64,000 nucleotides of DNA, from contig CAVSWU010000003.1 in the NCBI GenBank assembly GCA_963731795.1, positions 902,216 to 966,215 of the forward strand, in the 5' to 3' direction. Every line of letters begins with the position of its first letter. Position 1 is the first letter of the stretch. The translations under genes were made by a program, and so were the position numbers. Below the pieces are notes generated by a model. That model was given only the letters and a program-made list of their open reading frames with translations, searched no databases and was not told the DNA's origin. Positions 7,993-45,617 of this stretch are shown here, one piece after another. This stretch comes from an uncultured delta proteobacterium (lineage in GTDB: Bacteria; Myxococcota; Myxococcia; Myxococcales; Myxococcaceae).

Positions 7993-8019
7993 GCTGCGTG
8001 CTTACCACACGCGGGCGGG

Positions 8020-8412
8020 CTACGGCGCCTCTCGAAGCTCGGTGGCTGCCTGGAGAGTCTCCAACTTGGCAGCCCCCACGCCGGAGACGGCATCCACCTG
8101 GGCCCAGTTGGAGAAGCGTCCCTGGGCCTGGCGGGCCTCCACGAGCTTGTGCGCCAGCGAGCGCCCCACGCCCGGCAGCCGAGCCAGCTGCTCCTCCGAG
8201 GCGGAGTTGAGATCCAACTTCAGCCCGAGCGCCAGCGCCTGCGCGGCCGTGGGAGGGGCGCCGTCACCGCAGACGGCCACACCCTCCCGGAAGCGCACCG
8301 CGGAGGGCTCGCAATCGAGCGCCGGAGCCGGGCTCGGCCACCGCCACCGCACCACCCCACCGAGCGCCATCAGCCCGAGTGTCGCGGCGGCGAGCGAGCC
8401 CGTGCGGTTCAC
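8020..8412 (-). CDS. comEA: ComEA-like helix-hairpin-helix DNA-binding protein
   Basis: N-terminal signal/TM segment followed by DLNSASEEQLARLPGVGRSLAHKLVEARQ...FSNWAQVDAVSGVGAAKLETL (tandem HhH). Confidence 0.65.
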   Translation of the reverse strand: MNRTGSLAAATLGLMALGGVVRWRWPSPAPALDCEPSAVRFREGVAVCGDGAPPTAAQALALGLKLDLNSASEEQLARLPGVGRSLAHKLVEARQAQGRFSNWAQVDAVSGVGAAKLETLQAATELREAP

Positions 8413-8415
8413 CGA

Positions 8416-9680
<1,265 letters not shown>

Positions 9681-9819
9681 GGTGCTTGAGCCCCTCTCTG
9701 CTTGACGGGCGGACCCTATTGGGCGCATCCCCGGCTGTCAAAGCCGTCGTGTTACACCTTGCAGGGCTGTCCGTCTGCCCGCTTTGGGCTACGGTGCGCG
9801 CCCTTTCGTTGGAGCCCCC

Positions 9820-11411
9820 ATGTCCCTCCCCCGCCTGCTGATCGATGGAGACACCCTGAAGCTGGAGGAGATCCTCCAGGTGGCCCGCCACGCCGTCACG
9901 GTGGAGCTGGCCCCCGAAGCCGCCGCCCGGGTCGGCGCCGCCCGCTCCCTGGTGGACCGGGTAGCCGCGGGGGACACCCCGTCCTACGGCATCAACACCG
10001 GGTTCGGCACCCTGGCCGAGGTCCGTATCGACAAGAAGGATCTGCGGGAGCTGCAGCGCAACCTGATCCTCTCGCACGCGGCGGGGGTGGGCTCGCCACT
10101 GCCGCTGCCGGAGGCCCGAGCGCTGCTGCTGCTGCGGTGCAACGTGCTGGCCAAGGGGTACTCGGGCATCCGGCCGGAGACGCTCTCCCTGGCGCTGGAG
10201 ATGCTGAACCGGGACGTGGTGCCGGTGGTGCCCGAGCGAGGGAGCGTGGGCGCGTCCGGAGATCTGGCGCCGCTGGCGCACCTGGCGCTGGTGTTCATCG
10301 GCGAGGGCGAGGCGTTCTACCAGGGCCAGCGGCTCCCGGCCCGGCAGGCGCTGGAGCGGGCGGGGCTGCAGCCGGTGGTGCTGGAGGCCAAGGAGGGCCT
10401 GGCGCTGGTGAACGGCACGCAGGCCATGTGCGCGGTGGGCACCCTGCTCCAGCTGCGCGCGGAGATGCTGGCGGACCTGGCGGATCTGGCGGGGACGATG
10501 ACGCTGGAGGGGCTGCTCGGGAGCCACAAGCCGTTCATCCCGGAGATCCACGAGGTGCGAGCCCACGCAGGCCAGAAGGCGTGCGCGGCGCACCTGCGTC
10601 GGCTGCTGGTGGGCAGCGATCTGGTGGAGACGCACGTGAACTGCAGCAAGGTGCAGGATCCGTACAGCCTGCGCTGCATGCCGCAGGTGCACGGCGCGGC
10701 GCGCGAGGGGCTCTCGTTCGCGCGGCGGATCCTCGAGGTGGAGGTGAACAGCGCCACGGACAACCCGCTGGTGTTCGTGGACTCGGAGCGGATCGTCTCG
10801 GGAGGCAACTTCCACGGGCAGCCGGTGTCGCTGGCGCTGGACGTGGCGGCGATGGCGCTGACGCAGCTGTCGGCGATCAGCGAGCGCCGGGTGGAGCAGC
10901 TGGTGAACCCGTCGCTGTCGGGGCTGCCGCCGTTCCTGGCGAAGAACTCGGGGCTCAACTCGGGGTTCATGATCGCGCAGGTGACGAGCGCCGCGCTGGT
11001 GGCCGAGTCCCGCGTGCTGAGCCACCCGGCCTCGGTGGACTCCATCCCCTCCTCGGCGGGCCGTGAGGATCACGTGTCCATGGGCATGACGGCGGCGCTG
11101 AAGGCGCGGCAGGTGGCGGAGTTCACGCGCTCGTGCCTGGCCATTGAGATGCTGTGCGCGGCGCAGGCGCTGGACTACCGGCAGCCGGTGAAGGCGGGCC
11201 GGGGTCCGCAGGCGGCGTACGAGCTGATCCGCCGCAAGGTGCCCACGATGGAGAAGGATCGCGAGCTCCACCGGGACATCGAGGCGGTGAGCGCGCTGAT
11301 CGACTCGGGCGAACTGCTGGAGGCCGTGCGCGCCGCCACGGCGTCAGCCAGCTCAATCCAGGAAGCGCCGCTCCCACCGGCGCGTCTCTTCCATGGGGCG
11401 GCGAAGGATAG
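9820..11411 (+). CDS. hutH: Histidine ammonia-lyase. The 3' end is uncertain and may be frameshifted or truncated by the downstream insertion
   Basis: It has the MIO-forming motif [14 protein letters not shown] and full-length HAL similarity from [12 protein letters not shown] to ...[13 protein letters not shown]. No stop follows at the expected position; an alternate frame stops at 11411. Confidence 0.8.
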
Positions 11412-12258
11412 GGATAGCGGCACGATAGAGCCATGGTTCCAACACCTGGGCCAGCTCCCGATACGCGGGGAGCACTTCACCACGCTCCACATCGCCCGCC
11501 TCTGGCCAAGCCCCCAGGGTGACGACGACCTTGTCTCCCGCCAGTTCCTGCACGGTGGTGCCTGGGCTGTGGAGCCGAGTGCGCACTCCTTCAGCCCCTC
11601 CCAGTTCTCCCAACACGGGTTGGCCGAGAAAGTTCATCCAGTGCGGCCCCCTGAGGCGAGTACCCACATCCCACGAATACCCAGACTCACTTGAAACATC
11701 GATCCCCGGGTAACGCATCCAGTGGGGAGTCAGGGCTCTCGATACCCCCACGAGATCGAGCCCGCCATTGAACGCCAAGCCGCACGAACCCGAGCACAAG
11801 GGCAGCAGCGAGGCAATCTCGATCGCCAGCTCGCGCACCCGGCCTGGCCCATGCTCCTCAAGGAATTCGGTAGGCAGCCAGAACTGTGCCTCGCACATTG
11901 CATCCGGCTTGTACGCCCTGGAGATGACTTCAAAGTCCTTACCACGATACAGAAAGGCAAAGGTGCCTGAGACATCAGGCGCCTCCAAGGCAATGCGATG
12001 GTAGTTCCCCTCCAGAAGCTCTCGCCGGATGAGACCCCAACTGTGCTCGTTGAGGTCGCGCCACTCCCCTTCCTCGTCGGCGTATACACCCAGTGCCTGA
12101 GGCCCAACCCATCGCAAATAGACATCCAACGCGCTCATTACCTTTTGGGCAATGACTTGATGAGGGGGCCGCATGTAGAAGGTCAGGCTCAATCCTTCAC
12201 GCACCACTACAGTCCCGTTCCGAGCCTCAATGCGAATACGCGGGTAATGCTCACTCAT
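11353..12258 (-). CDS. Immunity-like protein, a hypothetical partner of the upstream secreted protein
   Basis: 301-aa ORF with good coding statistics but only ~58% GC against ~70% for its neighbours. It overlaps the upstream gene's stop by 4 nt. It overlaps the hutH 3' end convergently. Confidence 0.55.
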
Positions 12259-13084
12259 CGGCCGACTCCCAGATGCGGCTGAACGAGCCCGGGCTTCACC
12301 CCGAGGGCCTCGCCATACATCTCTCCTTGACTCCTTCCGCTATAGGGATGCCCCTTCGGGTAGTTCCTCCAAGAAGACCTGTTACTCGTGTTCATGCAAG
12401 GGAACTTGAAATCATAGGCATCCTGAACCCGGCGCGGATTCTCCTCATGGATGACGAGGTCCGGTTCCAGGGTTCCTCTCAATTCCTCGCCACGCCCCTG
12501 TCTCAGCAATTCTTCCACCACCTCTCGTGGAATGTATTCCGTCTTCCCCGTCCTCGGATCAAAGCGGTAGCGAGGCGTGAGGGTGAAGCCCCCTGGCCTC
12601 AGCTTGCTCAGTTTCTCCGCGGCGCACCGCAGCGCCACCTCGTGTTGCTCCACTCCCAGTTGCATCGCCCGAGTGATGGGCTGCCCATTCCGGTCCGTGC
12701 CCACCACCTCCTCGCACTCTTCGCGCGTGGGCCCCCGGTTGAAGTACTTGAGCATGACTTCGGAGCGCGCATTGTCCGCGCACTCGGCCAGCGCCTGGTC
12801 GATGGCGGCTCTCTCATTCTCTTCAAGCTCGCGGCTGGGCCGGACCAGAAGCCCTCCCGCCACTGCGGCTCCCACCAGCGAGCCGCTCGCCACGGTCGTG
12901 CTAGCGGCTGCATGCTGCCCCAGCACCGGTGGGCAGTTCGCCGGATCCCTCAGGCACGTGTTCGAGACCGTGTCCAGGCCGTACTGCCGTGCCGCTCCAT
13001 GGCCACCCACACAGGCCACGTGCAGCACGCACGCCCCCAGCATGGCGATGAAGCTCCAAGATCTCTGCTCACTCTGCCCTGGCA
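12255..13084 (-). CDS. Secreted protein or lipoprotein with a C-terminal domain of unknown function, a putative polymorphic toxin
   Basis: GGAGG RBS 6 nt upstream. The N-terminus MPGQSEQRSWSFIAMLGAC has a lipobox-like LGAC. It is translationally coupled to the lower-GC downstream gene. No catalytic motif was recognised in the C-terminal region. Confidence 0.5.
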
Positions 13085-13168
13085 TCTGCGCCTCCACTCT
13101 GGGAAATCCGTCCCCGCCGGCGACGGATTGATCTCTCGCACCGCGAGGAGGAACAAGAGAAGGCCTGG

Positions 13169-27463: not shown

Positions 27464-29365
27464 ATGCCCAGCACCCGCCGCCTCTCTGCCCCACAGCGCC
27501 GAACCGCTCTCGAGCAGCTCGGCCGTGACCGCCTCATCACCCTCACCGACCACTTCGGCCTGGAAGTCGGCGACAAGCGCGTCGCCGAAAACCACGTGAG
27601 CGCCTTGCTCCGGGCCCGGAGCGTGGACTTCTCCGAGCTGCTGGGGCTCCTGACGCGCCAGGAGCTTCAGTCCATCTGCGACGCCCTGGGCCTGGACCGG
27701 GGTGGCCGCGAGAAGGAAGTCCTCGCGCAGAGGATTCTCGACCTTGGGGAGGAGAGCCAGGGGGAGCTGCCCCTGACCGAGGCTGCTCCAGAGGAGGCTC
27801 CTGCGGAGAAGCCCAAGGCAAGCCGCGCCAAGGCTCAGAAGAACGGTGGCGATCTCGGGTTCGAGGCCACGCTCTGGCAGGCGGCGGACAAGCTCCGGAA
27901 CAACATGGACGCGGCCGAGTACAAGCACGTCGTCCTCGGGCTCATCTTCCTGAAGTACATCAGCGATGCCTTCGAGGAGCGCCGCGCCCAGCTCCTGGCC
28001 GAGGTGGACCAGGGGGCGGACCCGGAGCACCCCGACGAGTACCGGGCCGAGAACATCTTCTGGGTCCCCAAGGAGGCCCGCTGGGAGCGGCTCCAGGCCC
28101 AGGCCAAACAGCCGAGCATCGGCAAGCTCATTGACGACGCCATGGTCGCCATCGAGCGGGACAACCCCAGCCTCAAGGGAGTGCTGCCCAAGGAGTACGC
28201 CCGGCCCGGCCTGGACAAGCAGCGCCTGGGGGAGCTGATCGATCTGATCGGCACCATCGGCCTGGGAGATAGGGAGAACCGCAGCAAGGACATCCTCGGG
28301 CGCGTCTACGAGTACTTCCTCTCGGAGTTCGCCAGCGCCGAGGGCAAGAAGGGCGGCCAGTTCTACACGCCCCGCTCGGTGGTGAAGCTCCTGGTGGAGA
28401 TGCTCGCCCCGTACCGGGGCCGGGTCTACGATCCCTGCTGCGGCTCCGGGGGCATGTTCATCCAGAGCGAGAAGTTCGTGGAGGCCCACGGCGGCAAGCT
28501 CGGAGACATCTCCGTGTTCGGGCAGGAGTCCAACCCGACGACGTGGAAGCTGGCGAAGATGAACCTCGCCATCCGGGGCATCGACGCGAACCTCGGGCCC
28601 GAGAACGCGGACAGCTTCCACCGGGATCTGCACAAGGATCTGAAGGCCGACTACATCCTCGCCAACCCGCCGTTTAACGACAGCGATTGGGGTGGAGATC
28701 GGCTCCGCGAGGATGTCCGGTGGAAGTTCGGCGCACCTCCGGTCGGGAACGCGAACTTCGCGTGGGTGCAGAACTTCATCCACCATCTGGCACCGACGGG
28801 GACAGCGGGCTTCGTGCTGGCCAACGGCAGCATGTCCTCAAACCAGAGCGGCGAAGGTGAGATCCGCCGGGCCATTATTGAGGCAGATCTCGTGGATTGC
28901 ATGGTGGCACTCCCTGGGCAACTCTTCTATTCGACGCAGATTCCCGTGTGCTTGTGGTTCCTGGCGCGCGACAAGAAGAACAATCGACACAGGGACCGAC
29001 GGGGCGAAACCCTGTTTATTGACGCGCGAAAACTGGGAAGGATGATCGACCGAACCCACAGGGACCTGATCGACGAAGATATCCAACGGGTCGCTGACAC
29101 TTATCACTCCTGGCGCGGGGACCGCGATGCGGGCAAGTACGAGGACATAACTGGCTTCTGCAAGGCGACTCGGCTCAGCGACATCGCCGTCCACGGTTTC
29201 GTACTGACGCCAGGGCGGTACGTAGGCACGCCTGAAGCTGATGACGAGAAGCCATTCGCGGCGCACTTCTTGAGCCTGCGTGCCACTCTTGAAGAGCAGT
29301 TCGCCGAGTCTGACCGGTTGCAGGCTCGGATTCGCAACTCGCTCGCTCGTGTGAGGGGCGAGTAA
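27464..29365 (+). CDS. hsdM: Type I restriction-modification system methyltransferase subunit
   Basis: It has the N6-adenine methyltransferase motifs [10 protein letters not shown] (motif I) and NPPFN (motif IV), plus an N-terminal HsdM-N-like region. Confidence 0.9.
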
Positions 29366-30651
29366 TGAAGATCGAATGGCCCATCCTATCGCTAGCTGAG
29401 GCGGGGGTGACATTGCTGGATTGTGACCACCGCACTCCGCCTGCTGCCCCTGAGGGATACCCCTACGTCACAATCCCACAGATCAAGGACGGTCGTCTCG
29501 ACCTGTCTGACGTTCGGCGAATTGCTGAAGAGCATTTCCTCGATTGGACAAAGAAAACGCGCCCCATGGCAAACGATGTGGTCGTGGTGCGCCGGTGTAG
29601 CCCTGGGGATAGTGCTCATGTTCCGCCAGGGCTTGAGTTTGCTCTCGGTCAGAATCTTGTGCTTCTGCGCGCAGATGGGACCAGGGTTGCACCTGTATTC
29701 CTGCGATGGTTGGTGAGAAGTCCCTCTTGGTGGGAACAAGTCCAACGCTTCCTGAACGTCGGCGCAGTCTTTGACAGTCTGAAGTGTCGCGAGATTCCCA
29801 ACTTTCGATTGCCGGTCCCTCCCATCGACCAGCAACTTCTTATTGCAGAGGTGCTTGGAAGCCTAGATGAAAAAATCGCTTTGACGCGTCGCATGAACCA
29901 GACACTAGAAGATATGGCCCAGACATTGTTCCGGTCCTGGTTCGTGAACTTCGACCCAGTCCGGGCCAAGGCCAAGGGGCGGCGGCCTGAAGGTATGGAT
30001 GGGGCGATGGCGGCGCTTTTTCCTAACAGGCTCGTCGAATCAGAACTGGGTAACATTCCGGAGGGTTGGGCCAACTCCAGCATCTACGATGTAGCAAGCG
30101 CTGCATATGGAACCCCGTTCGCGTCGAGGCTCTTCAATTCGCAAGGAGATGGACTGCCGCTCATCCGCATCCGCGATCTCTCGACGCATGCTCCAACGAC
30201 CTTCACGCGCGAAGTGCTGGATCGTCAAATTGTCGTTGACCCAGGCGACATCGTGGTGGGCATGGACGGCGAGTTTCGTGTTCATCACTGGCGAGGTCCT
30301 CGCTCGCTAATGAACCAGCGCGTGTGCAAGTTCGTCCCCGCTCCGGGCGTGTCCAGAGTCTTCGTGGCCCAGTCCCTTATCGGGCCAATGCGGTTCTTCG
30401 AGAATACAAAAGCAGGAACGACAGTCATCCACCTCGGGAAGGCAGACATTGACACCATCAAGATCGTGAAGCCGCCCATGAGCATCCAGCAGGTGTTCGG
30501 CAATCTCGCGGAGCCTTTGCTTGAGAGAGTTCTCCTGAACGAGGCGGAAGCGCGGACATTGGCCGACCTACGTGACACTCTCCTCCCGAGGCTGTTATCC
30601 GGGGACATCCGCGTCGGTGAGGCTGAGGCCAAACTGGCGGCGAGCGTCTGA
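29365..30651 (+). CDS. hsdS: Type I restriction-modification specificity subunit
   Basis: Two target-recognition-domain halves with conserved spacer helices. A TAATG overlap joins it to hsdM. GC is ~50-55%. Confidence 0.85.
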   Translation: MKIEWPILSLAEAGVTLLDCDHRTPPAAPEGYPYVTIPQIKDGRLDLSDVRRIAEEHFLDWTKKTRPMANDVVVVRRCSPGDSAHVPPGLEFALGQNLVLLRADGTRVAPVFLRWLVRSPSWWEQVQRFLNVGAVFDSLKCREIPNFRLPVPPIDQQLLIAEVLGSLDEKIALTRRMNQTLEDMAQTLFRSWFVNFDPVRAKAKGRRPEGMDGAMAALFPNRLVESELGNIPEGWANSSIYDVASAAYGTPFASRLFNSQGDGLPLIRIRDLSTHAPTTFTREVLDRQIVVDPGDIVVGMDGEFRVHHWRGPRSLMNQRVCKFVPAPGVSRVFVAQSLIGPMRFFENTKAGTTVIHLGKADIDTIKIVKPPMSIQQVFGNLAEPLLERVLLNEAEARTLADLRDTLLPRLLSGDIRVGEAEAKLAASV

Positions 30652-30729
30652 TCGAGAGCCCGAACCTCACCGAGCCCTTTGACGCGGATGCGGGCGGGCC
30701 ACGATCAGCGCCGCTGATTCGGTGGACGA

Positions 30730-30790
30730 TGGGCGAGACGGACAGCAGCGGCTGCACTTCATGTCTGGACGTCCAGACATGAGAGTGGGA
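30730..30790. repeat. Palindromic repeat element, copy 1
   Basis: GGCTGCACTTCATGTCTGGACGTCCAGACATGAGA; the perfect 22-bp palindrome CATGTCTGGACGTCCAGACATG lies at 30760-30781. Confidence 0.85.
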
Positions 30791-31041
30791 GCGCCCCCCC
30801 CGGCAGCTCCTCCTCTCCCTCTCCTTCGAACGATCTGTAGAGGTGCGGCGCGAATCCCCAGGGGTCCGCTGCGACCGCCTTTGGCAAGCCGCACCCAGCA
30901 CGTTGGGCAAACAGAGAGAGCGCGGTGGGAGGCGAGAGGCCCACGCGGCATCACCCGGCAGGGCGTGGTGTTCCCTCCAGCAGCGGGTTCTACTGCTGCC
31001 TGACTCCGCTCCTGTCCGGGTAAGCGGAGGGGGGAGGACAC

Positions 31042-32661
31042 ATGCGTGCGGACCGCTTCCACCTGCTCCACTGCCGCAGCGCTCGGCATTGGGTTGTGCT
31101 CGTGCTCTGGGGATTGCTGGCAGGCTGCGCCAGCGGCAGAGCGGGGCCTCCCCTGGGCGGGGTGAGGGACTTCGAGGCGCTGCGCTACCGGCCTGCCACC
31201 CCGGAGCCCATGCCTGACACGGCGGCGGCGCGCAAGAGGGCGCAGTCGCAGCCCCAACCAGCCCTCGCGGGCAGTGGTAGCCCTGCGGGGATGGTGGCGC
31301 GCTCGGTGCTGGGCGGTGTCCAGCAACTGGACACCTTCGAGCAGGTACTGGTGCTGGCCGGGCTGGACAACCCCGAGGCACTCCCCTCGCCCGAGGCGCC
31401 CCTCCCCCCCGAGGACGCGGCGGCGCTGTATGACGAGCTGCTGGACAAGCCCGTCCCCCTGGCCCGCTTCGGTCCTCGGCTGGTGGCCACCTACCTGTTG
31501 CGCGAAGCCATGGAGGGGGATGAGGAGCTGCCCCGGGCGGTTCTGCTCCAGCGCGTGCAGCGCTTCAAGGGGCTGGCGGTGCTGCGGCCCGACGGCTACC
31601 TGGCGTGGGCGCTCACCGGACAGACGCAGCAGCACGTGGCCGAGGTGGAGTGGAAGGACGGCGCCTTCCGGGCTCATGACTTCGAGGTGGGGCACTTCTA
31701 CTCGGGCCGCAACGCCATGGCCTTCTTCGCGGTGGATGAGCAACTGCGGGACAGGAAAGAGTCCGGCGTGCTGGCCGAGGTGTACGACGACGCGGATGTC
31801 ATCAGCCGCGTGCTGGACGGAGCCGAGGCTTCCTACGTCGAGTTGGCCCTCTCCATCGGCAAGCTGGTGAGCCACCCCCTCCAGAGCGCCGAGGACTTGA
31901 AGCACCTGCCCTCCGCCCTGGCCGCCCTCATTGAGAGCTCGCCCGAGTACCTGGAGCGCTTCCGGCTGATGACGCGCGGAGAGCAGATCCGTGCGCTGTC
32001 GAAGCTGGGCACCACGCTGCTGTCCACCTACGGAGCGGCGGGGGGCACCACGCGCACGGTGGCGGCGGTGGGCAGTGGGATGGAGTCCGTCTCCGTGCCC
32101 GCGCTGACGCTCACGGCGGAGGGGGCGCTGGTGGTGGAGCGAGTCATGGTGCCCGCAGGGCGCGTGGTGACGGCGCTCAGCGGCGGGCCTGGAGCGGCCA
32201 TCATCCTTCAGCGCGCTGGCGACGCGGCCAGCGGAGGACAGCCCACTGCTCCGGAGGGCCCCGGCGAGTGGGGCCCGGCCAACGAGTCCATGAGCAAGCG
32301 CTCGGCGCGCTACCAGGAGCAGATCACCGGCCACTCCGCCAGCGAGGCGTACTGGGTGGGCGGCAAGGACTTGAAGAGCGGCGGCGTGAAACTCGACGGC
32401 TTCAAGGACGGAACGCTGCTGGATGCCAAGGGCCCCGGCTACGCCAACAAGTTCAACGACAACCTCACGCCCAAGAAGTGGTTCGCGCCCTCGGGAGCCA
32501 AGCAGCTCATCAAGCAGGCCCAACGCCAGCTCAATGTGGCCAAGGGCGTTCCCATCCGCTGGCATGTGGCGGAGAAGAAGGCCGCGGACGCCATCCGGAA
32601 GCTCTTGGAGGATGCGCCGATCACGGGGATTGAAGTGGTCTACACTCCCGCGTTGCAATAA
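31042..32661 (+). CDS. Lipoprotein polymorphic toxin candidate with a C-terminal PD-(D/E)xK restriction-endonuclease-fold domain (Tox-REase-like)
   Basis: GGAGG RBS. Signal with LLAGC lipobox. The leader contains DFEALRYRPATPEPMP. The C-terminal ~130 aa reads GHSASEAYWVGGKDLKSGGVKLDGFKDGTLLDAKG...IRWHVAEKK, with a D...D-x-K motif. Two paralogous immunity-like genes follow. Confidence 0.7.
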   Translation: MRADRFHLLHCRSARHWVVLVLWGLLAGCASGRAGPPLGGVRDFEALRYRPATPEPMPDTAAARKRAQSQPQPALAGSGSPAGMVARSVLGGVQQLDTFEQVLVLAGLDNPEALPSPEAPLPPEDAAALYDELLDKPVPLARFGPRLVATYLLREAMEGDEELPRAVLLQRVQRFKGLAVLRPDGYLAWALTGQTQQHVAEVEWKDGAFRAHDFEVGHFYSGRNAMAFFAVDEQLRDRKESGVLAEVYDDADVISRVLDGAEASYVELALSIGKLVSHPLQSAEDLKHLPSALAALIESSPEYLERFRLMTRGEQIRALSKLGTTLLSTYGAAGGTTRTVAAVGSGMESVSVPALTLTAEGALVVERVMVPAGRVVTALSGGPGAAIILQRAGDAASGGQPTAPEGPGEWGPANESMSKRSARYQEQITGHSASEAYWVGGKDLKSGGVKLDGFKDGTLLDAKGPGYANKFNDNLTPKKWFAPSGAKQLIKQAQRQLNVAKGVPIRWHVAEKKAADAIRKLLEDAPITGIEVVYTPALQ

Positions 32662-32671
32662 GACAGGCCTT

Positions 32672-33403
32672 GTGAGCGAGACGTACTACATCGGTGGTTA
32701 CTGGGGCGCGCGGAGGGAGGATGCCGAGTCGTGCGCTCGGCGCATCGCCGCGTTGGTGCAGGCGCTGGCGCCTGTCGATCCGCTCTTTGTCAGCTGGTTC
32801 AAGACCGCGAAGTCCCTCAAGGAATCCCTCAAGCGTCCGCTGGAGTTCGAACTCGCCAGCCTCTCCAAGTACGTCCAGCGCAACATCATGCGTGACGACA
32901 GGCGCAAACCCATGGAAGACCTGGGCTTTACCGTCTGGTTGTGGAACGGGGACCGGGGGGGCAACGACGCCTGGTTGCAGATGAGCTGTGGCGTAGCTTC
33001 AGAGCGAGTGAGCAACAGCTGTGTTCTCAGAGCGCCCTTCGAGGGGCCTGGAGCGGAGCGGGTCCTGACCACCGCTTTCCAGGTTCAAGCGCTGCGGGCC
33101 ATCGTCACTGCTTGGGATCCGGACTGGGGAGTAGGCATGTCGCGTGATCATCGAGACATCATCGGTCCCAGGTGCCCACACGTGCTGGTAGGCTGGGTGA
33201 CATACCTCTCGCGCCGCTTGGGCCGTGTACCCCCGCTGCCCGCGCCCGTGCGCATTGAGCCCTTGGAGGACAAAGGCACGCTCGTCATCCTCACCCCCGA
33301 GCGCTTCACCGCCTCCAACCCCGAGCACGTCGCCCTGGCCGAGCGCGTCCGCGAGCTGCTCGACCGCGCCGGGCTGCTCGGCAAGCCGCGTCCTGAGAAG
33401 TAG
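32672..33403 (+). CDS. Immunity-like protein 1 (a paralog of the 33575 gene)
   Basis: GTG start 10 nt after the toxin stop. (M)SETYYIGGYWGAR...WDPDWGVGMSR. It is ~80% identical to the next ORF. Confidence 0.65.
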   Translation: MSETYYIGGYWGARREDAESCARRIAALVQALAPVDPLFVSWFKTAKSLKESLKRPLEFELASLSKYVQRNIMRDDRRKPMEDLGFTVWLWNGDRGGNDAWLQMSCGVASERVSNSCVLRAPFEGPGAERVLTTAFQVQALRAIVTAWDPDWGVGMSRDHRDIIGPRCPHVLVGWVTYLSRRLGRVPPLPAPVRIEPLEDKGTLVILTPERFTASNPEHVALAERVRELLDRAGLLGKPRPEK

Positions 33404-33424
33404 GTTCAGGGCCTGCAATGGACG

Positions 33425-33486
33425 GTGGCAGAGACAGGCAGCGACGGCTGCACTTCATGTCTGGACGTCCAGACATGAGAGTTGGA
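33425..33486. repeat. Palindromic repeat element, copy 2
   Basis: The same element as copy 1; the 22-bp palindrome lies at 33456-33477. Confidence 0.85.
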
Positions 33487-33574
33487 GCGTGCTATCTGGC
33501 AGTTCCTCCCCTCCCAGGTAGCAGCGCGTTATCCTCGCTCCTCGGCACGCCCGCGCTGCAATGAGACAGGCCCC

Positions 33575-34306
33575 ATGATCGAGACGTACTACACGGGTGT
33601 TTACTGGGGCGCGCGGAAAGAGGACGCTGAAGCCTGCGCGCGTCGCATCGCGGCCCTGGTCCAGTTGCTTCAGCCAGTGGATCCGCTCTTCGCCAGTTGG
33701 TTCAAGGGCTCGAAGTCTCTCAAACAGTCCCTCCAACGCCCGCTGGAACTCGAACTCTCCAGTCTCCAAAAGTACATCCAGCGCAACCTCATGCGTGACG
33801 ACAGGCGCCAGCCCATGGAGGATCTGGGCTTCAGTGTTGGTCTGTGGAATGGGCATCAGGGGGGTAACCACGCTTTTCTGAGCATTGGCTGCGGGGGATA
33901 TTGGGATCAGCTGAGCAATAGCTGTGTTCTGGATGCTCCGGATGAGGGGCCTGGTTCAGAGCGCGTCCTGACAACGGACTTCCAAGTTCAGGCGCTGCGG
34001 GCACTCGCCACCGCGTGGGACCCAGATTGGGGAGTGGGCATGTCACGTGCTCATCGGGACATCATTAAGGAGAAGTGCCCACACGTGCTGGTGGGCTGGG
34101 TGACGTACCTCTCGCGCCGCTTGGGCCGTGTACCCCCACTTCCTGCGCCCGTGCGCATCGAGCCCGTGGAGGACAAAGGCGCGCTCATCATCCTCACCCC
34201 CGAGCGCTTCACCGCCGCCAACCCCGAGCACGTCGCCCTGGCCGAGCGCGTCCGCGAGCTGCTCGACCGCGCCGGGCTGCTCGGCAAGCCGCGTCCTGCA
34301 CAGTAG
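33575..34306 (+). CDS. Immunity-like protein 2 (a paralog of the 32672 gene)
   Basis: MIETYYTGVYWGAR... The C-terminal ~100 aa are nearly identical to immunity 1. It is preceded by a copy of the toxin's last ~15 nt (cccgcgctgcaatgagacaggcc). Confidence 0.65.
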   Translation: MIETYYTGVYWGARKEDAEACARRIAALVQLLQPVDPLFASWFKGSKSLKQSLQRPLELELSSLQKYIQRNLMRDDRRQPMEDLGFSVGLWNGHQGGNHAFLSIGCGGYWDQLSNSCVLDAPDEGPGSERVLTTDFQVQALRALATAWDPDWGVGMSRAHRDIIKEKCPHVLVGWVTYLSRRLGRVPPLPAPVRIEPVEDKGALIILTPERFTAANPEHVALAERVRELLDRAGLLGKPRPAQ

Positions 34307-34324
34307 GTTCAGCGCCTGCGGTGG

Positions 34325-34390
34325 GCGGCGGGAGAGCCAGGCCGCGGCGGCTGCACTTCATGTCTGGACGTCCAGACATGAGAATCAGAG
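34325..34390. repeat. Palindromic repeat element, copy 3
   Basis: The same element; the 22-bp palindrome lies at 34359-34380. Confidence 0.85.
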
Positions 34391-34437
34391 CACGCCACCT
34401 CAGCCTCCCGCCGCCCCTTCTCGTGAGCCGCGCCTGC

Positions 34438-35163
34438 TCAGCGCGCGGCCGGCGGGACCGCATCCATCAGCGCCTCGATCACCTTGTCGACCTCCGCCAG
34501 AGGAAAGTCCCGCAAGGTCCCGAGGATGGTGCCCTTCTGGTTGCGAGCGGTGAGCTGGATGCGGCTGCTCTTGTCGGTGAACTTGCGCGCCAGCGAGTCA
34601 CGGTAGCGCTTGATCCGCTCCGCATCCTCCTTGGGAATGGGCATGTTGGAGGTGGGCCGGCGCAGGCGCTGCAGGGCCTTGCGCAGCTCCACCACGCTGC
34701 AGTTGGCGAAGGACTTCTCCTGGGTCGCGCCGTCCTTGTCGACCACGGTGATGGGGAAGAGGCCCGGGTCGTTCCTGTCGGCCTTCTTGCCGGTGGCCTC
34801 TTCGTAGGTGAGCAGCAGGCCCAGGCGCGAGATGCCGTACTGCACGCACACCTCCTGGCTGAACTCGCGGGCCACGGCGCCGTACGCGGCCAGGGTGGCC
34901 CGCGACAACTCCTTCAGTTCTTTGGCGAAGAAGTCGGGCGCATCCTTGTAGCCCGCATCCTCCGCCAGATTGTGGGTGACGACGTAGTTGTAGATGAGAC
35001 CAATCTGGTAGAAGTTGATCTCGCTCTGCCCCAGGATCTGGCGAATGGTGGAGGGGACTTCTTCGATCGTCATCCCCTCAAGCGAGCCGTTGAGGCGGGG
35101 ATTGAGAATGGCCTGGGTGAGGTTCGACATCGGATCTTGAGCTGCGACAACAGGCTTTTGCAT
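34438..35163 (-). CDS. Hypothetical protein embedded in the Type I R-M locus
   Basis: 241-aa ORF with real coding statistics and ~60% GC. It has no recognisable motif. It is divergent from hsdR. Confidence 0.55.
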   Translation of the reverse strand: MQKPVVAAQDPMSNLTQAILNPRLNGSLEGMTIEEVPSTIRQILGQSEINFYQIGLIYNYVVTHNLAEDAGYKDAPDFFAKELKELSRATLAAYGAVAREFSQEVCVQYGISRLGLLLTYEEATGKKADRNDPGLFPITVVDKDGATQEKSFANCSVVELRKALQRLRRPTSNMPIPKEDAERIKRYRDSLARKFTDKSSRIQLTARNQKGTILGTLRDFPLAEVDKVIEALMDAVPPAAR

Positions 35164-35319
35164 GTGAGACGTTCCTTGGTTGGAGCTGCGTGATTGCTGC
35201 GCTCCCTCCTAAAGCAGGGCCCGTGCCAACACAGAGGCCAGTGAAATGGCCCCCTTACGCGAAGGGGCTCCCCTCCCCCCATCTCACTTCGTGGACTGGA
35301 CAGTCTCATTCGGTGGACT

Positions 35320-38562
<3,243 letters not shown>

Positions 38563-39804: not shown

Positions 39805-42800
39805 ATGAGCGAGCAGAACGATCTCACGAGGACCTCGTCCTCTGCCTCCATCCCCGCGCCAGCAGGCACTCCCGCGAGGCCCACAACCGAGGTCCTCGCC
39901 CAGAACGTGAGCGCGCTGCCGGTGGCCACCCCTCCCGAGGATGAGGCCCGCGAGCGCCTCGCCGCGCTGGAGCGCGAAGCCCGCGCCCTGGTGCCAGCGA
40001 TCCGCAGGCCGCCGCCCTGCTCTTCCACGAGATCGGCCTGCTCTGGGAGGAGACGCTCAAGAACCCGCGCAACGCGGCCGTCGCCTTCCAGAACGCCTAC
40101 AAGCTGGCGCCGAGCTTCCTCGCGAACATCCGCGCCGCGCGCCGCCTCTTCGCGGACGTGGGCAACTGGCAGATGGTCATCCAGCTGCTCGACGCGGAGC
40201 TGGCGCGGCACCGAGGAGCCTCGCCAGAAGGCCACGCTGCTCTTCGAGAAGGCCACCATCCTCGAGGAGCGCCTCGTCGCGCGAGGCGGACGCCAAGGCC
40301 GCCTGGCAGCAGTGCCTGGAGCTGAAGCCCACCGAGGTCGGCCTGCTCACCCAGCTCGAGGCCCACTACGCGGCGCGCAACGACTACGAGTCGCTGGTCG
40401 AGGTGTACCGGCTGCTCGCCGGCACGCTGGAGCACCCCGCCGCTGCGCGCGCACTACCTCACCACCGCGGGCCTGGTGCTCGAGGAGCGCCTCAAGCAGC
40501 GCGAGGCCGCCGCCGACTTCTTCCGCGAGGCCTTCGCGCTCGACCGCTCGGACCTGCTGCTGCTCGCGGCCATGAAGCGCGTGGCCGAGCGCGAGGGCCG
40601 CGCCGACGAGCTGCTGGCCGCGCTGGCCGCCGAGGCCGACGTGCTCGGCACCCAGGCCACGCCCGCCTACCTGCAGATCGCCAAGGTCTACGAGCGCATG
40701 GGCCGCAAGGATGACGCGCTGGCCGCGCTGCTCGCCGCGCGCCGCGTCACCCCGAACGAGCCGCTCGTCCTCTCCGAGCTGGCCGGCATCTACGAGACGC
40801 AGGGCCGCTACGAGGAGCTGGCGGACGTGCTGCTCGGCGTGGGTGGGCTCCATCACCGACGAGAGCGAGCTGGTGGCCATCAACCTGCGCCTGGCCGCGC
40901 TCTACGAGGAGGATCTCAAGCGCGAGCACGGAGGCCATCGCCCGCTACCAGGCGATCCTCTCGCGCATCCCCGGCCACGCCCCCGCGCTGGCGGGCCTGG
41001 GCAAGCTCTACCACCGCGCTGCAGAACTGGGAGGGGCTCGTCTCCGTCTTCGACGCGGAGATCGCCGCCGCCGAGGACGCCCGCGCAGAAGGCCGCCCGC
41101 ATGTACAAGGCCGCCGAGGTGCTCGAGGAGCGGCTCGGGCGGCAGGACGAGGCCATCGCCCGCTACAACGACTGCCTCCAGCTCCAGCCGGGCTACCTGC
41201 CCGCGCAGAAGGCCCTCTCGCGCCTCTACGAGCGCCAGGGCCGCTTCGCCGAGCTGGTCGCGCATGTACGAGCAGGATCTGCTGCAGACCACCGATCGCG
41301 ATCAGCTCATCTCCACGCTCAACAAGATGGCGGTCCTCTACGAGGAGCGCCTCAGCGATCTCGATCACGCCATCGACTGCATGAAGCGGATCCTCGATCT
41401 GGCCTCCGATCACCTGCCCACCATCCGCAACCTGTCGCGGCTCTACGAGCGCGCCGGGCGCTACCGCGAGCTGATCGAGACCGCAGGAGCTGGAGGCCTC
41501 GTTCGCCGGCGACACCAAGCAGGTGCTGTCGCTCTACCACCGCAACGCGGAGATCCTCGACGAGCACCTCAAGGATCGCACCGGCGCCATCGGCCATGTA
41601 CGAGCGCGTGCTGGCGCTCTCTCCCTCGTACCTGCCCGCGCTCAAGGCGCTGGGGCGGCTCTACGCGCAGGAGGGCCGCTGGAGCGAGCTGATCAAGATG
41701 TACCGGGCGGAGGCGGAGATCTCTCCCTCCACCGAGCAGGCCGCCACGCTGCAGTTCAAGATCGGCGAGCTGTACGAGCACCGGCTCAAGAGCCAGAACG
41801 AGGCCATCGCCGCCTACCAGGAGGTGCTCACGCTGGCGCCCAGCTACTTCCCCGCGCTGCGCGCGCTGGCTCGCATCTACCGGGCCAACGGCCACTGGGA
41901 GAAGCTGATCGAGGTGCTGCGCGCCGAGGCCGCCAACCGCATCGATCCGGTCGAGCGCGCCAACGCCCTCTTCCAGGCCGCCGCCATCTGGGAGGACCAG
42001 CTGCAGCGGCCCGAGCTGGCCATCGAGGGCTACCAGGAGGTGCTCGGCTGACGCCGGGCCACGCCGCCGCCCTGCGCGCCCTGGAGCGGCTCTACACCAC
42101 CCAGGACAACATCAAGGAGCTGGTGGCCATCCTGGATCGCGAGACCCAGGTGGGCCAGACGCCGGGCGCCAAGGTGGCCGCCTACCTCAAGCTGGCGCGC
42201 CTGTACCTGGATCGCTTCAAGGAGCCCGCCCGCGCCGCCCAGTGCTGCGAGGCCGTGCTCCAGCTGGATCCCGGCCAGCTTCACCGCGCTGAAGATGCTC
42301 GAGCGCATCCGCGCCGGGGACAAGCCGCGCCGCGCCGAGCTGCGCTTCCGCCTCTCCGAGCACGTGCAGGAGACACGCCTGCGCACCGCGCTGCGCCTGT
42401 CCGCCGCCGCGGATCAGGACAAGGGCTCCACCGAGGCCACGCTGGAGGAGTACAAGCCGGCCTTCCAGGAGGATCCCTCGGACGTGCGCGTGGCCTTCGC
42501 GCTGGAGCGCGCGCTGCGCCAGGCCGGGGACTTCGCCGGCCTGGCCTGGCTCTACAGCCGCCGCCTGGAGGTGGTGACCGAGCCCATCGAGCGCGTGGAG
42601 CTGCTGCTGCGCATCGCGGACCTGTCCGAGCACAAGCTGGGCGATCTGGAGCGCGCCGGCCAGCTCTACCGGGCCGCGCTGGAGGCCCAGCCGCAGTGCC
42701 TGCCCGCGCTCAGGGCTCGCGCCGCGTGCAGCTCAAGCAGGGCAACGTCGCCGCGGCCCGCGCCACCCTGGAGGCCGAGGCCCGCGCCAGCCGCGATCCC

Positions 42801-44881
42801 CGCAGCGCCGTGGAGGCCTTCATCGCCGCCGCGAAGCTCGCCTCCTCCCGCCTGAACGATCTGGACGGCGCCGCCGCCCTGTACCGGCAGGCGCTGGAGA
42901 AGGATCCGCTCAACCCCGCGGCCACCGCGGGCCTGGAGGATCTGCTCGCCCAGCGCGGCGGCACTCCGGATCTCGCGGCGCTGCACGAGCGGCGCGGCGA
43001 GGCCCGGCTGGCCCAGCGCGATCTCCAACGCCGCCGCCGCCGCGTTCATCAGCGGCGCGAAGCTGTACATCACCGCGCTGAGCGATCGCTCCAAGGCCAT
43101 GGCCCTGGTGGAGCGCGCGCTCGCCGCGATGCCGAACTACCCGGATGCGCTGGAGCTGAAGGGCCGGCTGCTGCTGGAGGACCAGAAGTACGCCGAGGCC
43201 GCCGCGGCGCTCGCCCAGCGCGTGCAGCAGGGCGGCGATCCGCGCCTGCTCGCGCAGCTCCACCTCACCCTGGGCGGCCTGTACCAGACGCACCTGAACG
43301 AGACGAGCCGGGCCTCCGCGCACCTGCAGACGGCGCTGGCCGCGATGCCGAAGAACGAGGAGGCGCTGGAGCGGCTCGCCACCCTGCACGGCCAGGCTCG
43401 CAACTGGTCCGGCGCGGTGGACTGCCTCAAGCGCCTGCTGGAGCTGGAGCTGGCCACGGTGGATCGGGCGCGCCACACCGTGGAGCTGGCGCGCATCCAC
43501 GACGAGGGCCTCGGCGACACGGCCGGCGCATCCGCGCTGTACCGCAAGGCGCTGGAGCTGAGCCCCGGGGACTCGGAGCTGGTGGATCGGCTCGTCACCC
43601 TCTACGAGCGCGCCCACAACCTGCCGGAGCTGGCGCAGATGCTGGAGGCGCAGGTGGGCGACGCTCGCGGCGGTGGATCAGAAGCGGGCCCAGTCCGTGC
43701 GGCTGCGGCTGGCGGAGCTGTACGCCCGCGCGCTGGAGCAGCCGGCGCGCGCCATCGCCGTGCTACCGGCAGGCGCTGGAGCACGAGCCGACGAGCATCT
43801 CCGGCGCGCGCCGCGCTCGCGGAGCTCTACATGCGCGACTCCTCGGCCACGGCGCTGGCGATCGAGGAGCACCGGCAGCTGATCAAGCTGGACCCGACGC
43901 GGGTGGACAGCCTCCACGCGCTCTTCAAGCTGTGGGAGGGCCTCAAGCAGCACGACAAGGCCTTCTGCGCGGCGGCGGCGCTGCAGTTCCTGCGCTCGGC
44001 CAACGAGGTGGAGGTCGTCTTCTACAACGAGGCCAAGGCGCGGCTGGCGCAGGACGCGCAGGAGTCGCTGCCGCTCACGGATCTGGATGGCATGCTGCTG
44101 CACCCGTCCGCGCGCGGGCCGCTGCTGGAGGTGCTGCGGGCCATCGGCGATCAGCTCGGGAAGATGTACCCGCCCCAGTTCGAGATGCTGGGCGTGGACA
44201 AGAAGGCGGACAAGCTCAAGCCGGACTCGGCGGTGTTCAAGGCCATCCGCGCCGTGGCTCAGGTGTTCGGCGTGGAGGAGTTCGAGGTCTACCAGTCCCG
44301 CCGCGGCCTGATGACGCTGGAGACCACCGAGCCGCTCTCGGTCTGCGTGGGCCAGGACGTGGTGCGCAAGTTCAACGCCCGCGAGCAGAAGTTCCTCATC
44401 GGCCGCGCGGTGCTGGGGCTGCTGAACAAGACGGCGGTGCTCTCGAAGCTGTCGCAGGGCGAGACGGCGGATCTGTTCGGCAACTCCGTCCGCATCCACG
44501 CGCCGCAGTTCACCGCGCTCGGGCGGAAGAGCGATGACATGGTGAAGCAGCTGCGCAAGGCGTACTCGCGCAAGGCGCTCAAGGCGCTGGAGGCGCCGGC
44601 GATGGCGCTCGGGGCCGATCCGAAGGCGGATCTGAAGAAGCTGTCCGGGGGGCTCTCGCTGTCCGCGGATCGAGCCGGCATGCTGATGTGCGGCGACATC
44701 TCCGTGGGCCTGGGGCTGGTGCTGCGTGAGGACCCGACGATGGCGGAACTCGAAGATCGAGACGGCGGCGGATCCGGTGATCCAGGCGCTGAAGGCGCGC
44801 GAGGATCTGCGCGATCTGATGACCTTCTCCCTGTCGGACGACTTCTTCCGGCTGCGCCAGCGGCTGGGGCTGGGGCTGTAG
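39805..44881 (+). CDS. Very large TPR-repeat protein (~1690 aa) with a non-TPR C-terminal domain, broken by many (>10) apparent frameshifts
   Basis: TPR consensus runs across ORFs 39742.., 39941.., 40476.., 40711.., 41264.., 41523.., 42295.. and 43099..44895 (ALxxxP, YxxLG, W/A-rich pairs). The true C-terminus ...[12 protein letters not shown] lies in an alternate frame and ends at 44881. Confidence 0.55.
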
Positions 44882-44885
44882 TCGC

Positions 44886-45617
44886 CTACTCCTGACGGAC
44901 CACGGCATCCGCGGGCAGGCCGCCGCGGATGCGCGCCAGGGCGTCCTCCACGGGCGCCAGCTCGGCGGCCTCGATCGTCACCTTCACCCGGTAGTCCAGC
45001 GTCGGATCGAACACCGGGTAGGAGCCGATGGCCACGTGCGGCATGTCCAGGGCCACCCGGTCCAGCACGGCGGCGATGGTGCTCTCGCCCAGGCGCAGGT
45101 AGAGGCTGCGCAGATGCACCGGCGTGCCGCGCAGCTGCTTGAGCACCGTCTCCAGCTGGAGCCTGAAGAGCTGGGGCACGCCGGGCAGCAGGAAGACATT
45201 GTCCACTGTCAGGACAGGGAACCAGGTGCCCGCCTGGGGCAGCAGCACGGCGCCCTCGGGCGCGTCCGCCAGCCGCAGGGCCTCCTCGGTGAGGTGATCC
45301 GAGCGCTTGCGGATGAGTTCCACCATCTCGGGCAGGCGCACCACCTGGCGGCCCATGGCGAGCGCCACCGCGCGCACGGTGACGTCATCGTGGGTGGGGC
45401 CGATGCCGCCGCTGGTGAAGACGTAGGTGGCCTTCGAGCGCGCCCGGGCTACCGCGTCGACGATGGCGTCCACGTCATCGGTGACGATCTCCACGGAGCG
45501 CAGAGGAATGCCGAGCTCGCGCAGGCGGCGGATGAGGTGGGGCCCGTTGGCATCCACCACCTTCGCGGTGAGGACTTCGTTGCCGATGATGACCGCTGCT
45601 GCGCCGGTGCGCTCCAT
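44886..45617 (-). CDS. CinA-like / molybdopterin-binding (MoCF-biosynthesis) domain protein
   Basis: AAVIIGNEVLTAKVVDANG...FTSGGIGPTHDDVT matches the CinA N-terminal domain. Confidence 0.8.
   Translation of the reverse strand: MERTGAAAVIIGNEVLTAKVVDANGPHLIRRLRELGIPLRSVEIVTDDVDAIVDAVARARSKATYVFTSGGIGPTHDDVTVRAVALAMGRQVVRLPEMVELIRKRSDHLTEEALRLADAPEGAVLLPQAGTWFPVLTVDNVFLLPGVPQLFRLQLETVLKQLRGTPVHLRSLYLRLGESTIAAVLDRVALDMPHVAIGSYPVFDPTLDYRVKVTIEAAELAPVEDALARIRGGLPADAVVRQE

Follow-up and report, generated by a model that had tools for sequence, protein, structure and literature searches.

Myxobacteria tell kin from non-kin partly by means of large sets of lipoprotein toxin-immunity cassettes. Two overlapping genes that adjoin hutH in a Hyalangium-like myxobacterium raise the question of whether such a cassette is present within the 64,000-nucleotide stretch of DNA analysed here (the window), how its products may act, and whether its arrival altered the end of hutH. 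Taken together, the data favour, as the probable reading, a two-gene interbacterial-antagonism cassette in which a lipoprotein DNase is paired with a TsiV immunity protein, with outer-membrane exchange as the likely means of delivery.

The gene pair and its products

Each of the two open reading frames has hundreds of conserved homologues and so represents a genuine gene, not a chance ORF; the features read from them are given in Table 1. Both genes lie on the minus strand in the same direction. The initial annotation had described them as translationally coupled, and the ATGA in which the toxin gene ends and the immunity gene begins bears this out, although the toxin start had been placed at 13084, one base off the actual ATG at 13085. 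The same 4-nt toxin/immunity overlap recurs at loci L081, L082, L129 and L130 and on the P0002 contig. The inverted repeat in the spacer upstream of the toxin gene is specific to the window, and is missing from the otherwise alignable L083 spacer. A scan of positions 11000-13500 for sigma-70 promoters and terminators returned nothing above chance, and neither direct or inverted repeats flanking the cassette nor any trace of a transposon or of an integrase-type element was found.

Table 1. Coordinates of the cassette and of the adjoining hutH end (window positions)
Feature	Position	Strand	Basis
Putative toxin gene, 276-aa lipoprotein with C-terminal PD-(D/E)xK nuclease-like domain	12255..13085	-	ORF, start context, homologues
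Immunity gene, 301-aa TsiV/DUF3396-family protein	11353..12258	-	PF11876 match
Predicted type II (lipoprotein) signal peptide, aa 1-25	13011..13085	-	alignment A1, hydropathy
Linker, aa 26-79, low-complexity, predicted-disordered	12849..13010	-	AF2 pLDDT, variability in A1, hydropathy
Predicted globular nuclease-like domain, aa 80-276	12258..12848	-	
Proposed catalytic residues E146, D209, D225, K227	D209, 12459-12461; D225, 12411-12413; K227, 12405-12407	-	
ATGA overlap of toxin stop and immunity start (translational coupling)	12255..12258	-	read from sequence
GGAGG, Shine-Dalgarno-like, 5 nt upstream of toxin ATG	13091..13095	-	read from sequence
Inverted repeat (stem-loop, I6) in the 83-nt kinase-toxin spacer	13105..13129	.	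repeat search
Normal hutH stop position, TCA in the window	11344..11346	+	alignments A3, A4, A5
hutH read-through tail, remaining 115 of 116 codons plus stop (11692-11694)	11347..11694	+	antisense to tsiV

Searches of both proteins against family profiles, as the initial annotation had suggested, placed the 301-aa protein in PF11876; the lipoprotein matches no curated family model. The PF11876 match (E=8.1e-51, 173.4 bits against a cutoff of 25) spans profile positions 2-271 of 271, and is accompanied by a weak PDB match to the immunity protein PA0821 (7drg). The C-terminal RRWERRFLD, directly before the stop, is kept across TsiV homologues, and the first ~50 residues contain neither an N-terminal hydrophobic segment nor a signal peptide. 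TsiV is predicted to reside in the cytoplasm, where it would bind and block the nuclease; members of the TsiV/DUF3396 family have been demonstrated by experiment to confer immunity to VRR-Nuc toxins, which introduce double-strand breaks (PMC9635880).

The upstream protein reaches its hydropathy maximum at residues 11-25. It had been flagged as a possible lipoprotein from an LGAC motif, and this motif is indeed present as MLGAC at Cys19; it is, however, a second lipobox-like motif, the family-invariant lipobox cysteine being Cys25 (LHVAC), which follows the hydrophobic stretch in 30/30 sequences of alignment A1. "Lipoprotein" is also the UniRef name of some of the homologues. Lipoproteins are sorted according to the residue at position +2, which may direct retention in the inner membrane; here the +2 residue is Val after both Cys19 and Cys25, and no inner-membrane retention residue is present. 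Six further cysteines follow the lipobox, which fits an extracytoplasmic protein. The linker carries two semi-conserved cysteines and a Gly/Ala-rich hydrophobic stretch at residues ~62-78, the latter visible as a hydropathy bump at residues 61-75, and its sequence is variable in A1. AF2 confidence is low throughout this region (pLDDT < 50 for residues 22-78) and high for residues 80-276 (pLDDT > 90).

The confidently modelled domain is predicted to be nuclease-like, of the PD-(D/E)xK type, and would be expected to have the corresponding enzymatic activity. P208-D209 and D225-x-K227 are invariant in A1, and E146 is found in at least 90% of its sequences. In the AF2 model, E146 lies in helix 139-162, P208-D209 opens strand 210-213 and D225-x-K227 closes strand 219-226, such that the E, (P)D and (D/E)xK residues sit on the alpha/beta/beta elements expected of the superfamily. 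Structural likeness to solved PD-(D/E)xK members was observed with moderate matches, and a Foldseek search of the toxin against the PDB gave no match at E<=0.001. Neither the single sequence nor the profile returned anything meaningful from Pfam (including VRR_NUC and Tox-REase), NCBIfam or the PDB; PDB chains at E<=10 yielded chance matches only, and Pfam at E<=0.1 yielded no family.

Linkage, turnover and the end of hutH

The toxin family has about 250 members, among which 242 homologues are about 260-290 aa long, and it diverges to 40-80% identity. All named homologues are myxobacterial (Hyalangium, Corallococcus, Archangium, Vitiosangium and Myxococcaceae), and no relative of the toxin is encoded on the viral contigs scanned. 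A TsiV gene directly follows the toxin gene in 43/46 loci; of the three exceptions, two are truncated by a contig end, and the third, a distant homologue, has only 196 nt of sequence after it. Toxin-immunity pairs are arrayed in tandem at L102, L109 and L117, and the genomic surroundings of the cassette are unrelated between loci. The toxin-then-immunity arrangement first proposed is thereby strongly supported at the level of sequence, as a TsiV/DUF3396 gene linked to a gene for a nuclease-like lipoprotein.

Base composition sets the pair apart from its surroundings. GC content is 63.7% in the toxin gene and 60.8% in the immunity gene, whereas the remainder of the window stands at 68.8%; the GC3 values are 0.75 and 0.68, respectively, against 0.85-0.95 in neighbouring genes, and minima of 0.56-0.57 occur in 300-nt windows. 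The low GC noted initially thus holds relative to the surroundings, although the ~58% then given is slightly low for the whole 301-aa gene. In 17/18 loci the flanks are richer in GC than both cassette genes; at L119 the immunity gene alone is lower. Taken as a whole, the cassette has a lower GC than its flanks at all loci compared.

Comparison of the region downstream of hutH in relatives, also proposed at the outset, revealed three states of the site. The cassette occupies an identical tsiV-hutH junction in L129 and L130; in a closer relative (L131) it is gone by a 1.78-kb deletion, which left the final ~29 nt of tsiV (the last six codons and the stop) beside hutH; and in H. versicolor (L132) the site is empty. 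The alignments support the view that the cassette is an accessory module beside hutH, and these relatives document its gain and loss at single-site resolution. Conserved core status, high GC and housekeeping homology, each of which would have spoken against the original proposal, were looked for and not found. In the same vein, it is very improbable that the pair is something other than a toxin system, such as a housekeeping periplasmic or outer-membrane nuclease or a non-enzymatic protein, with DUF3396 in another role. The placement of the toxin domain in no curated family and the moderate structural matches would suit such a role; however, the variation of the site among close relatives (cassette present, absent or reduced to a scar), the obligate link to a family whose immunity function is proven (PMC9635880), and the atypical GC, arrays and non-core distribution all argue against it. 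Uniform occurrence throughout the clade, which would have favoured this reading, was not observed. The cassette is an ordinary accessory cassette, probably representing a common kind of bacterial weapon.

A single 28-kb island, suggested by the lack of window positions 11344-40000 in the distant relatives L001 and L004, was considered and dropped, because most of this interval has native composition and ordinary genes, and shows a collinearity with H. versicolor that begins at the kinase gene.

The hutH reading frame, from the ATG at 9820, comprises 624 codons and extends to 11694, whereas each of the 120 best-matching HutH proteins is about 508 aa long (497-526) and covers only ~81% of it. 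HutH homology stops at 11343, and the codon that follows, which is TGA, TAA or TAG in relatives, is TCA in the window, owing to a G-to-C difference at 11345 that is private to it. The missing stop had been recognised correctly in the initial annotation, as the frame does run on to 11694; the pair, however, stops outside the hutH terminus and not within it as was then thought, since the tsiV stop (11353-11355) lies beyond the normal hutH stop with a gap of 6 nt. The two ORFs overlap because the hutH stop reads TCA instead of TGA.

It had also been proposed that insertion of the module into the 3' end of hutH removed the stop, and a genuine HutH fusion or extension might then have resulted. The frame does continue for 116 codons into antisense tsiV, and the cassette is only 6 nt away from hutH. 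However, the same junction exists in L129 and L130 with the TGA intact and a 508-aa HutH, and the scarred L131 has TGA as well; the difference comes down to one private base, in an assembly where sequence error is plausible. A fusion is accordingly very improbable. As read from the alignments, the loss of the stop is an independent single-base difference, separate from the cassette, and the base at 11345 reflects either a mutation or an error in the assembly. The latter is a live alternative because the neighbouring aspartokinase gene is broken by two private 1-nt insertions in the same assembly, at 9358 and 9389. The apparent HutH extension should not, for the present, be given a biological interpretation. 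The tail was separately considered as a conserved extension and rejected, in that its tblastn matches coincide precisely with antisense tsiV sequence.

Proposed mechanism and comparison with known systems

The favoured model proposes that the upstream lipoprotein is exported by the Sec and Lol pathways, the outer membrane being its probable anchoring site, and that its C-terminal domain acts as a PD-(D/E)xK (restriction-endonuclease-fold) DNase. The translationally coupled TsiV would remain in the cytoplasm of cassette-bearing cells to bind and block the nuclease. The toxin may then reach neighbouring myxobacterial cells as outer-membrane cargo through TraAB-dependent exchange, as SitA does, enter the cytoplasm and cut the DNA of cells that do not possess the cognate TsiV. 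By analogy, SitA-like passage between kin as an outer-membrane lipoprotein appears to be the most likely route.

Because TsiV belongs to a type VI immunity family (PMC9635880), it might be supposed that the pair is instead a type VI effector-immunity pair of the TseV/TsiV type, with a spike-loaded nuclease injected into the target. Salmonella bongori TseV2/3-TsiV and P. aeruginosa PA0822/PA0821 (PMC9635880) do share with the cassette a PF11876 immunity protein and a PD-(D/E)xK-type nuclease encoded directly upstream, with a common D...DxK layout. Further, betaproteobacterial TsiV genes (on Burkholderia and Robbsia plasmids) are preceded by a PAAR-like toxin whose core has weak similarity to that of the cassette toxin: profile-profile alignment of A1 with 30 PAAR-like toxin C-terminal domains by hhalign gave a probability of 30% (P=5.4e-4), a weak signal over 35 columns spanning the D and YD[FM]KF motifs, and alignment of A1 with a single PAAR-like toxin was uninformative (probability 0.1-0.3). 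However, the cassette toxin differs from TseV in its Sec/lipoprotein signal with an invariant lipobox cysteine, in giving no match to VRR_NUC, and in the exclusively myxobacterial origin of its named homologues. By Pfam it contains no PAAR, VgrG, Rhs or MIX region, and the 10 longer proteins among 261 cluster representatives (50% identity) that the profile search matched likewise contain no T6SS-type domains when scanned against Pfam. In addition, no T6SS genes adjoin the cassette, either in the window or in L081, L082 and L129-L132. Type VI delivery is therefore hardly to be expected. At this locus TsiV/DUF3396, an immunity family recorded solely in type VI secretion, is partnered with a putative lipoprotein toxin.

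A lipoprotein nuclease could also serve outside kin exchange, either in predation after release on outer-membrane vesicles or mainly in addiction (post-segregational killing) that would keep the locus from being lost, with the immunity protein then providing self-protection only. This is unlikely, albeit less so than type VI delivery. A precedent is pMF1.20/pMF1.19 of an M. fulvus plasmid, a SitA6-type DUF2380 pair that stabilises the plasmid (PMC6091211) and which, like the cassette, consists of a small single-domain lipoprotein nuclease and a co-transcribed inhibitor. The pMF1 pair nevertheless belongs to unrelated protein families, combining DUF2380 with a double-CXXCG where the cassette has PD-(D/E)xK with TsiV, and differs in its gene order, and the cassette is chromosomal. 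The lack of a long escort domain and the retention of the cassette at one site in several lineages are consistent with addiction or vesicle release; against this, the cassette was cleanly lost in L131 with no visible consequence, tandem diversified arrays and 40-80% identity are as expected of polymorphic competition toxins, and neither a vesicle or plasmid context nor a relative on the scanned viral contigs was seen.

Delivery by outer-membrane exchange, the favoured reading, finds a close parallel in the SitA proteins of Myxococcus (families SitA1/2 to SitA7), which are likewise lipoproteins: their C-terminal domains are nucleases, and a cytoplasmic immunity protein is encoded just after them (PMC5562445, PMC8546572). 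The cassette resembles these in its lipobox, C-terminal nuclease domain, downstream immunity gene in the same operon, accessory loci that are at times tandemly repeated and restriction to the same myxobacterial group, and the non-modular toxin domain reported for SitA4, SitA6 and the DNase family SitA7 is also a feature of its toxin. In one homologue (P0256), moreover, the nuclease domain is fused to a SitA6-family (DUF2380/TIGR02269) lipoprotein region. However, whereas an escort domain of ~375 aa, of which six families are defined, forms the N-terminal part of the published SitA proteins (PMC8546572), the 276-aa cassette toxin has only a disordered linker of ~55 aa, and no sitB gene is present at the locus. 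The SitA6 models (TIGR02269/DUF2380), the only SitA models compared, do not match the toxin.

The same window encodes, at 31042..34306, a Tox-REase-5/Imm52 pair of the TseT/TsiT type, comprising a lipoprotein with an LLAGC lipobox and its partner. This pair likewise couples a restriction-endonuclease-fold toxin to a dedicated immunity gene, but from other toxin and immunity families, and with a long SitA-type N-terminal region that the cassette toxin does not have. With so short an N-terminal region, the cassette offers a compact system in which to test the features that a lipoprotein toxin requires for cell entry, and a profile built from the ~250-member family, for which curated models of the nuclease domain are lacking, could improve the annotation of myxobacterial genomes. 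Tentatively, and with less than even confidence, the cassette may belong to an unclassified minimal family of lipoprotein toxins outside SitA1-7, as judged against the SitA6 models alone: a TseV/TsiV-type nuclease-immunity pair, of a type known elsewhere from type VI secretion, repackaged with no more than a lipobox and a Gly/Ala-rich, disordered linker of ~55 aa in front, so that the toxin would enter cells without the ~375-aa escort domain that is thought to define SitA toxins and drive their entry.

The gene pair and its products

The toxin gene of the cassette begins with an ATG at 13085, preceded 5 nt upstream by GGAGG, and its TGA stop and the start ATG of the following tsiV gene share the overlap ATGA (12255-12258). 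A longer GTG-initiated reading frame for the toxin gene was rejected, as it would run into the preceding kinase gene and as the homologues begin at the ATG. Against a window GC of ~69% (68.8% outside the pair), the toxin gene has 63.7% and tsiV 60.8%, and GC3 falls to 0.75 and 0.68, respectively, versus 0.85-0.95 in neighbouring genes. The initial annotation had described a toxin-then-immunity pair at 11353-13084 with a GC of ~58% for the 301-aa second frame; gene order, coupling and lower GC are borne out, but the end coordinate is one base off and the GC estimate slightly low. The kinase-toxin junction of the window recurs in L083 and P0010. An inverted repeat with 12-nt arms in the kinase-toxin spacer was not found in the spacer of L083, which otherwise aligns.

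Coordinates of the features discussed, in window positions
Feature	Positions	Strand	Remarks
aspartokinase gene	8416..9728	minus	split over three reading frames by insertions at 9358 and 9389
hutH-to-Ser/Thr-kinase interval	11344..13168
two-gene cassette	11353..13085	minus
Gly/Ala-rich linker stretch	12849..12900		toxin aa ~62-78
inverted repeat	13105..13129
type I restriction-modification locus	27464..37296
hsdM	27464..29365
hsdS	29365..30651		GC3 0.64
539-aa lipoprotein gene	31042..32661		LLAGC lipobox, long N-terminal region, C-terminal Tox-REase-5 domain
Imm52 gene	33482..34306
hsdR	35320..37296
TPR-repeat genes	~40008..45600

The 301-aa tsiV product fits the full length of the Pfam profile PF11876 (E=8.1e-51), which stands for the TsiV family ("Type VI immunity for VRR-NUC"; previously DUF3396), its top sequence match in PDB is the DUF3396 protein PA0821, and no signal peptide was found in it. 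DUF3396 proteins have been experimentally shown to be immunities against Salmonella bongori TseV nucleases (PMC9635880). The toxin sequence, searched against Pfam, NCBIfam and PDB, gave no match. Its homologues number 242 in a 90%-clustered database, and 261 representatives of 50%-identity clusters were matched; almost all are of 260-290 aa, and all those with a named organism are myxobacterial (Hyalangium, Corallococcus, Archangium, Vitiosangium or Myxococcaceae). In a 30-sequence alignment, the family shows a lipoprotein signal peptide in which one Cys never varies (Cys25 in the window protein, which bears a second candidate lipobox, MLGAC, at Cys19), separated by a variable linker from a conserved C-terminal domain in which P208-D209, D225-x-K227 and four Cys residues are invariant and E146 is retained by 90% or more of the sequences. 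With the toxin alignment as input, AlphaFold2 gave pLDDT >90 at residues 80-276 and <50 at residues 22-78, and in the predicted structure the motif residues lie on one helix and two neighbouring strands, the arrangement known from PD-(D/E)xK nucleases. Within the otherwise disordered linker is a Gly/Ala-rich hydrophobic stretch, VASGSLVGAAVAGGLLV, of which homologues retain the character and not the sequence; it might have a role in membrane insertion or cell entry.

Linkage of the two genes was examined in 46 homologue-encoding loci, of which 44 are metagenomic and the other two are L081 and L082. A TsiV gene directly follows the toxin gene in 43, overlapping it or lying within ~50 nt. Two of the remaining three end at a contig edge, and in the third, where the homologue is a distant one, the sequence continues downstream for just 196 nt. 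This linkage, the PF11876 match and the predicted PD-(D/E)xK domain strongly support the original toxin-then-immunity reading. The settings of the cassette are unrelated: it neighbours purC in one case, for example, and is flanked by a histidine kinase gene and an amidohydrolase gene in another. The pair is repeated or in tandem in several loci (L102, L109, L117). Where 2.5 kb of flank or more could be compared (18 loci), both genes fall below flank GC in 17 loci, and in L119 the immunity gene only. In L081, tsiV and a convergent purC overlap by 6 nt (5076-5081), and tight convergent packing at the 3' end of the cassette is thus not unique to the window.

The hutH junction and the cassette in relatives

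The window HutH protein shares 96.9% identity with its counterpart in a Hyalangium sp. genome and 95% with the one in H. versicolor. Its homology to relatives stops at 11343, and the normal stop position (11344-11346), occupied in relatives by TAA (L007), TAG (L127) or TGA (L128, L129, L130, L131, L132), reads TCA in the window. As the tsiV stop codon lies at 11353-11355, hutH and tsiV are convergent with a 6-nt gap. The window hutH frame continues for 116 codons antisense to tsiV, stopping at 11692-11694, and among the 120 best HutH homologues not one has a comparable tail; in many tsiV homologues the antisense frame is open, which accounts for the long read-through of a hutH without its stop. 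It had been suggested that the cassette was inserted into the hutH 3' region, and the missing stop had been read as a sign of it. However, the cassette lies beside hutH, not in it, as two loci of relatives, L129 and L130, have the same 6-nt gap and junction sequence with a 508-aa hutH ending in TGA; their toxins are 82% identical to that of the window, and their gene order is the same (toxin, tsiV, convergent hutH, aspartokinase, comEA). The stop loss is unrelated to the cassette: at 11345 the window has a private G-to-C change, and 72 such private substitutions, this one included, were counted over 2.76 kb of alignment. The alignment has only two indels, both of them private insertions of 1 nt (9358 and 9389, 31 nt apart), and both lie within an aspartokinase gene that is intact in L128, L129 and L131. 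The substitution and the insertions may be either real or assembly errors, and the aspartokinase gene either a real pseudogene or a carrier of such errors; the doubtful origin of its insertions bears on the trust to be placed in the hutH stop-codon change.

The contig L131 (Hyalangium sp. GCA_045802625.1), 95.6% identical in DNA to the window across 2.8 kb, is without the cassette. After its hutH TGA the last ~29 nt of tsiV are kept (2731-2759; ERRFLD and stop codon), the end of a C-terminal motif, RRWERRFLD-stop, conserved in tsiV genes everywhere. Over 2731-2768 this remnant is fused to sequence that in L129 precedes the toxin gene; L129 positions 7972-9752 (1,781 nt) are missing from L131. 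The remnant is a deletion scar, left by a natural 1.78-kb loss of the cassette. In L132 (H. versicolor), two M16 peptidase genes start 30 nt after hutH, no tsiV scar was found, and beyond the M16 genes stand the same kinase, GH5, M14 and Big_2 genes that the window has. The junction in L129 and L130, the scar in L131 and the empty site in L132 together establish the cassette as an accessory element, fixed 3' of hutH in part of the clade, inside a variable hutH-kinase interval.

Among the Hyalangium-like genomes compared (window, L129, L131, L132, L083), that interval is hypervariable, holding the cassette alone in the window and L083, the cassette and two unknown genes in L129, the unknown genes with a two-component system and two M16 genes in L131, and the M16 genes in L132. 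In more distant Myxococcaceae (L001, L002, L004), the TPR-repeat genes directly follow hutH, so that window 11.3-40 kb is lineage-specific relative to those genomes; its composition is mostly native.

Delivery and relation to known toxin systems

On the most likely reading, the toxin is exported, lipidated and, with Val at +2 and hence no known inner-membrane retention residue, probably anchored in the outer membrane; its six further Cys residues would fit an oxidising compartment. Given a cytoplasmic immunity protein and a predicted DNase-type toxin, the toxin would have to act in the recipient cell's cytoplasm. The known route for myxobacterial lipoprotein nuclease toxins is TraAB-mediated outer membrane exchange, as in SitA/SitI (PMC5562445, PMC8546572). 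Delivery of the window toxin by this route, the likeliest one, would agree with its lipobox, an immunity gene lying downstream, the occurrence of tandem arrays, the accessory status of the cassette and the SitA6 fusion in P0256. This 451-aa homologue, from the representative search, joins a SitA6-family lipoprotein region (DUF2380/TIGR02269, above the curated cutoff; DUF2380 is equated with SitA6 in PMC12077181) to the same nuclease domain, and could be a naturally formed chimera between two families of lipoprotein toxins. In a few other homologues the nuclease domain follows yet other N-terminal regions: judged by eye, the 470-aa one of P0274 opens with a hydrophobic, signal-peptide-like stretch, and those of P0382, P0385 and P0386 are charged and Glu/Lys/Gln-rich, and no signal peptide is obvious in them.

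Plasmids of Burkholderia, Robbsia, Rhizobium and Agrobacterium carry TsiV homologues whose annotation is type VI immunity protein, and in Burkholderia a toxin with a PAAR-like domain precedes the TsiV gene. The C-terminal domains of 30 PAAR-like toxins were made into a profile, which in an hhalign comparison with the myxobacterial family aligned over the catalytic core and matched the D and YD[F/M]KF motif (probability 30%, P=5.4e-4), which is suggestive of, though not conclusive for, a common origin. Pfam's VRR_NUC model hits neither of the two groups.

An escort domain of ~375 aa is reported for the SitA families, whereas the window toxin has a disordered linker of ~55 aa with its Gly/Ala-rich stretch, and the missing long escort domain is the main misfit to the SitA route. 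The description of SitA7 goes no further than a predicted, non-modular DNase, and by it the window family could be SitA7 or another family. A second toxin-immunity set lies within the type I restriction-modification locus, and its 539-aa Tox-REase-5 lipoprotein has a textbook SitA-like architecture. Systems of this kind are well known and abundant in myxobacteria, with 25-80 sitAI loci per genome (PMC8546572); what the present cassette adds is modest: a lipoprotein toxin that has a TsiV immunity as its partner, a nuclease family not covered by a curated model, and an architecture reduced to a minimum.
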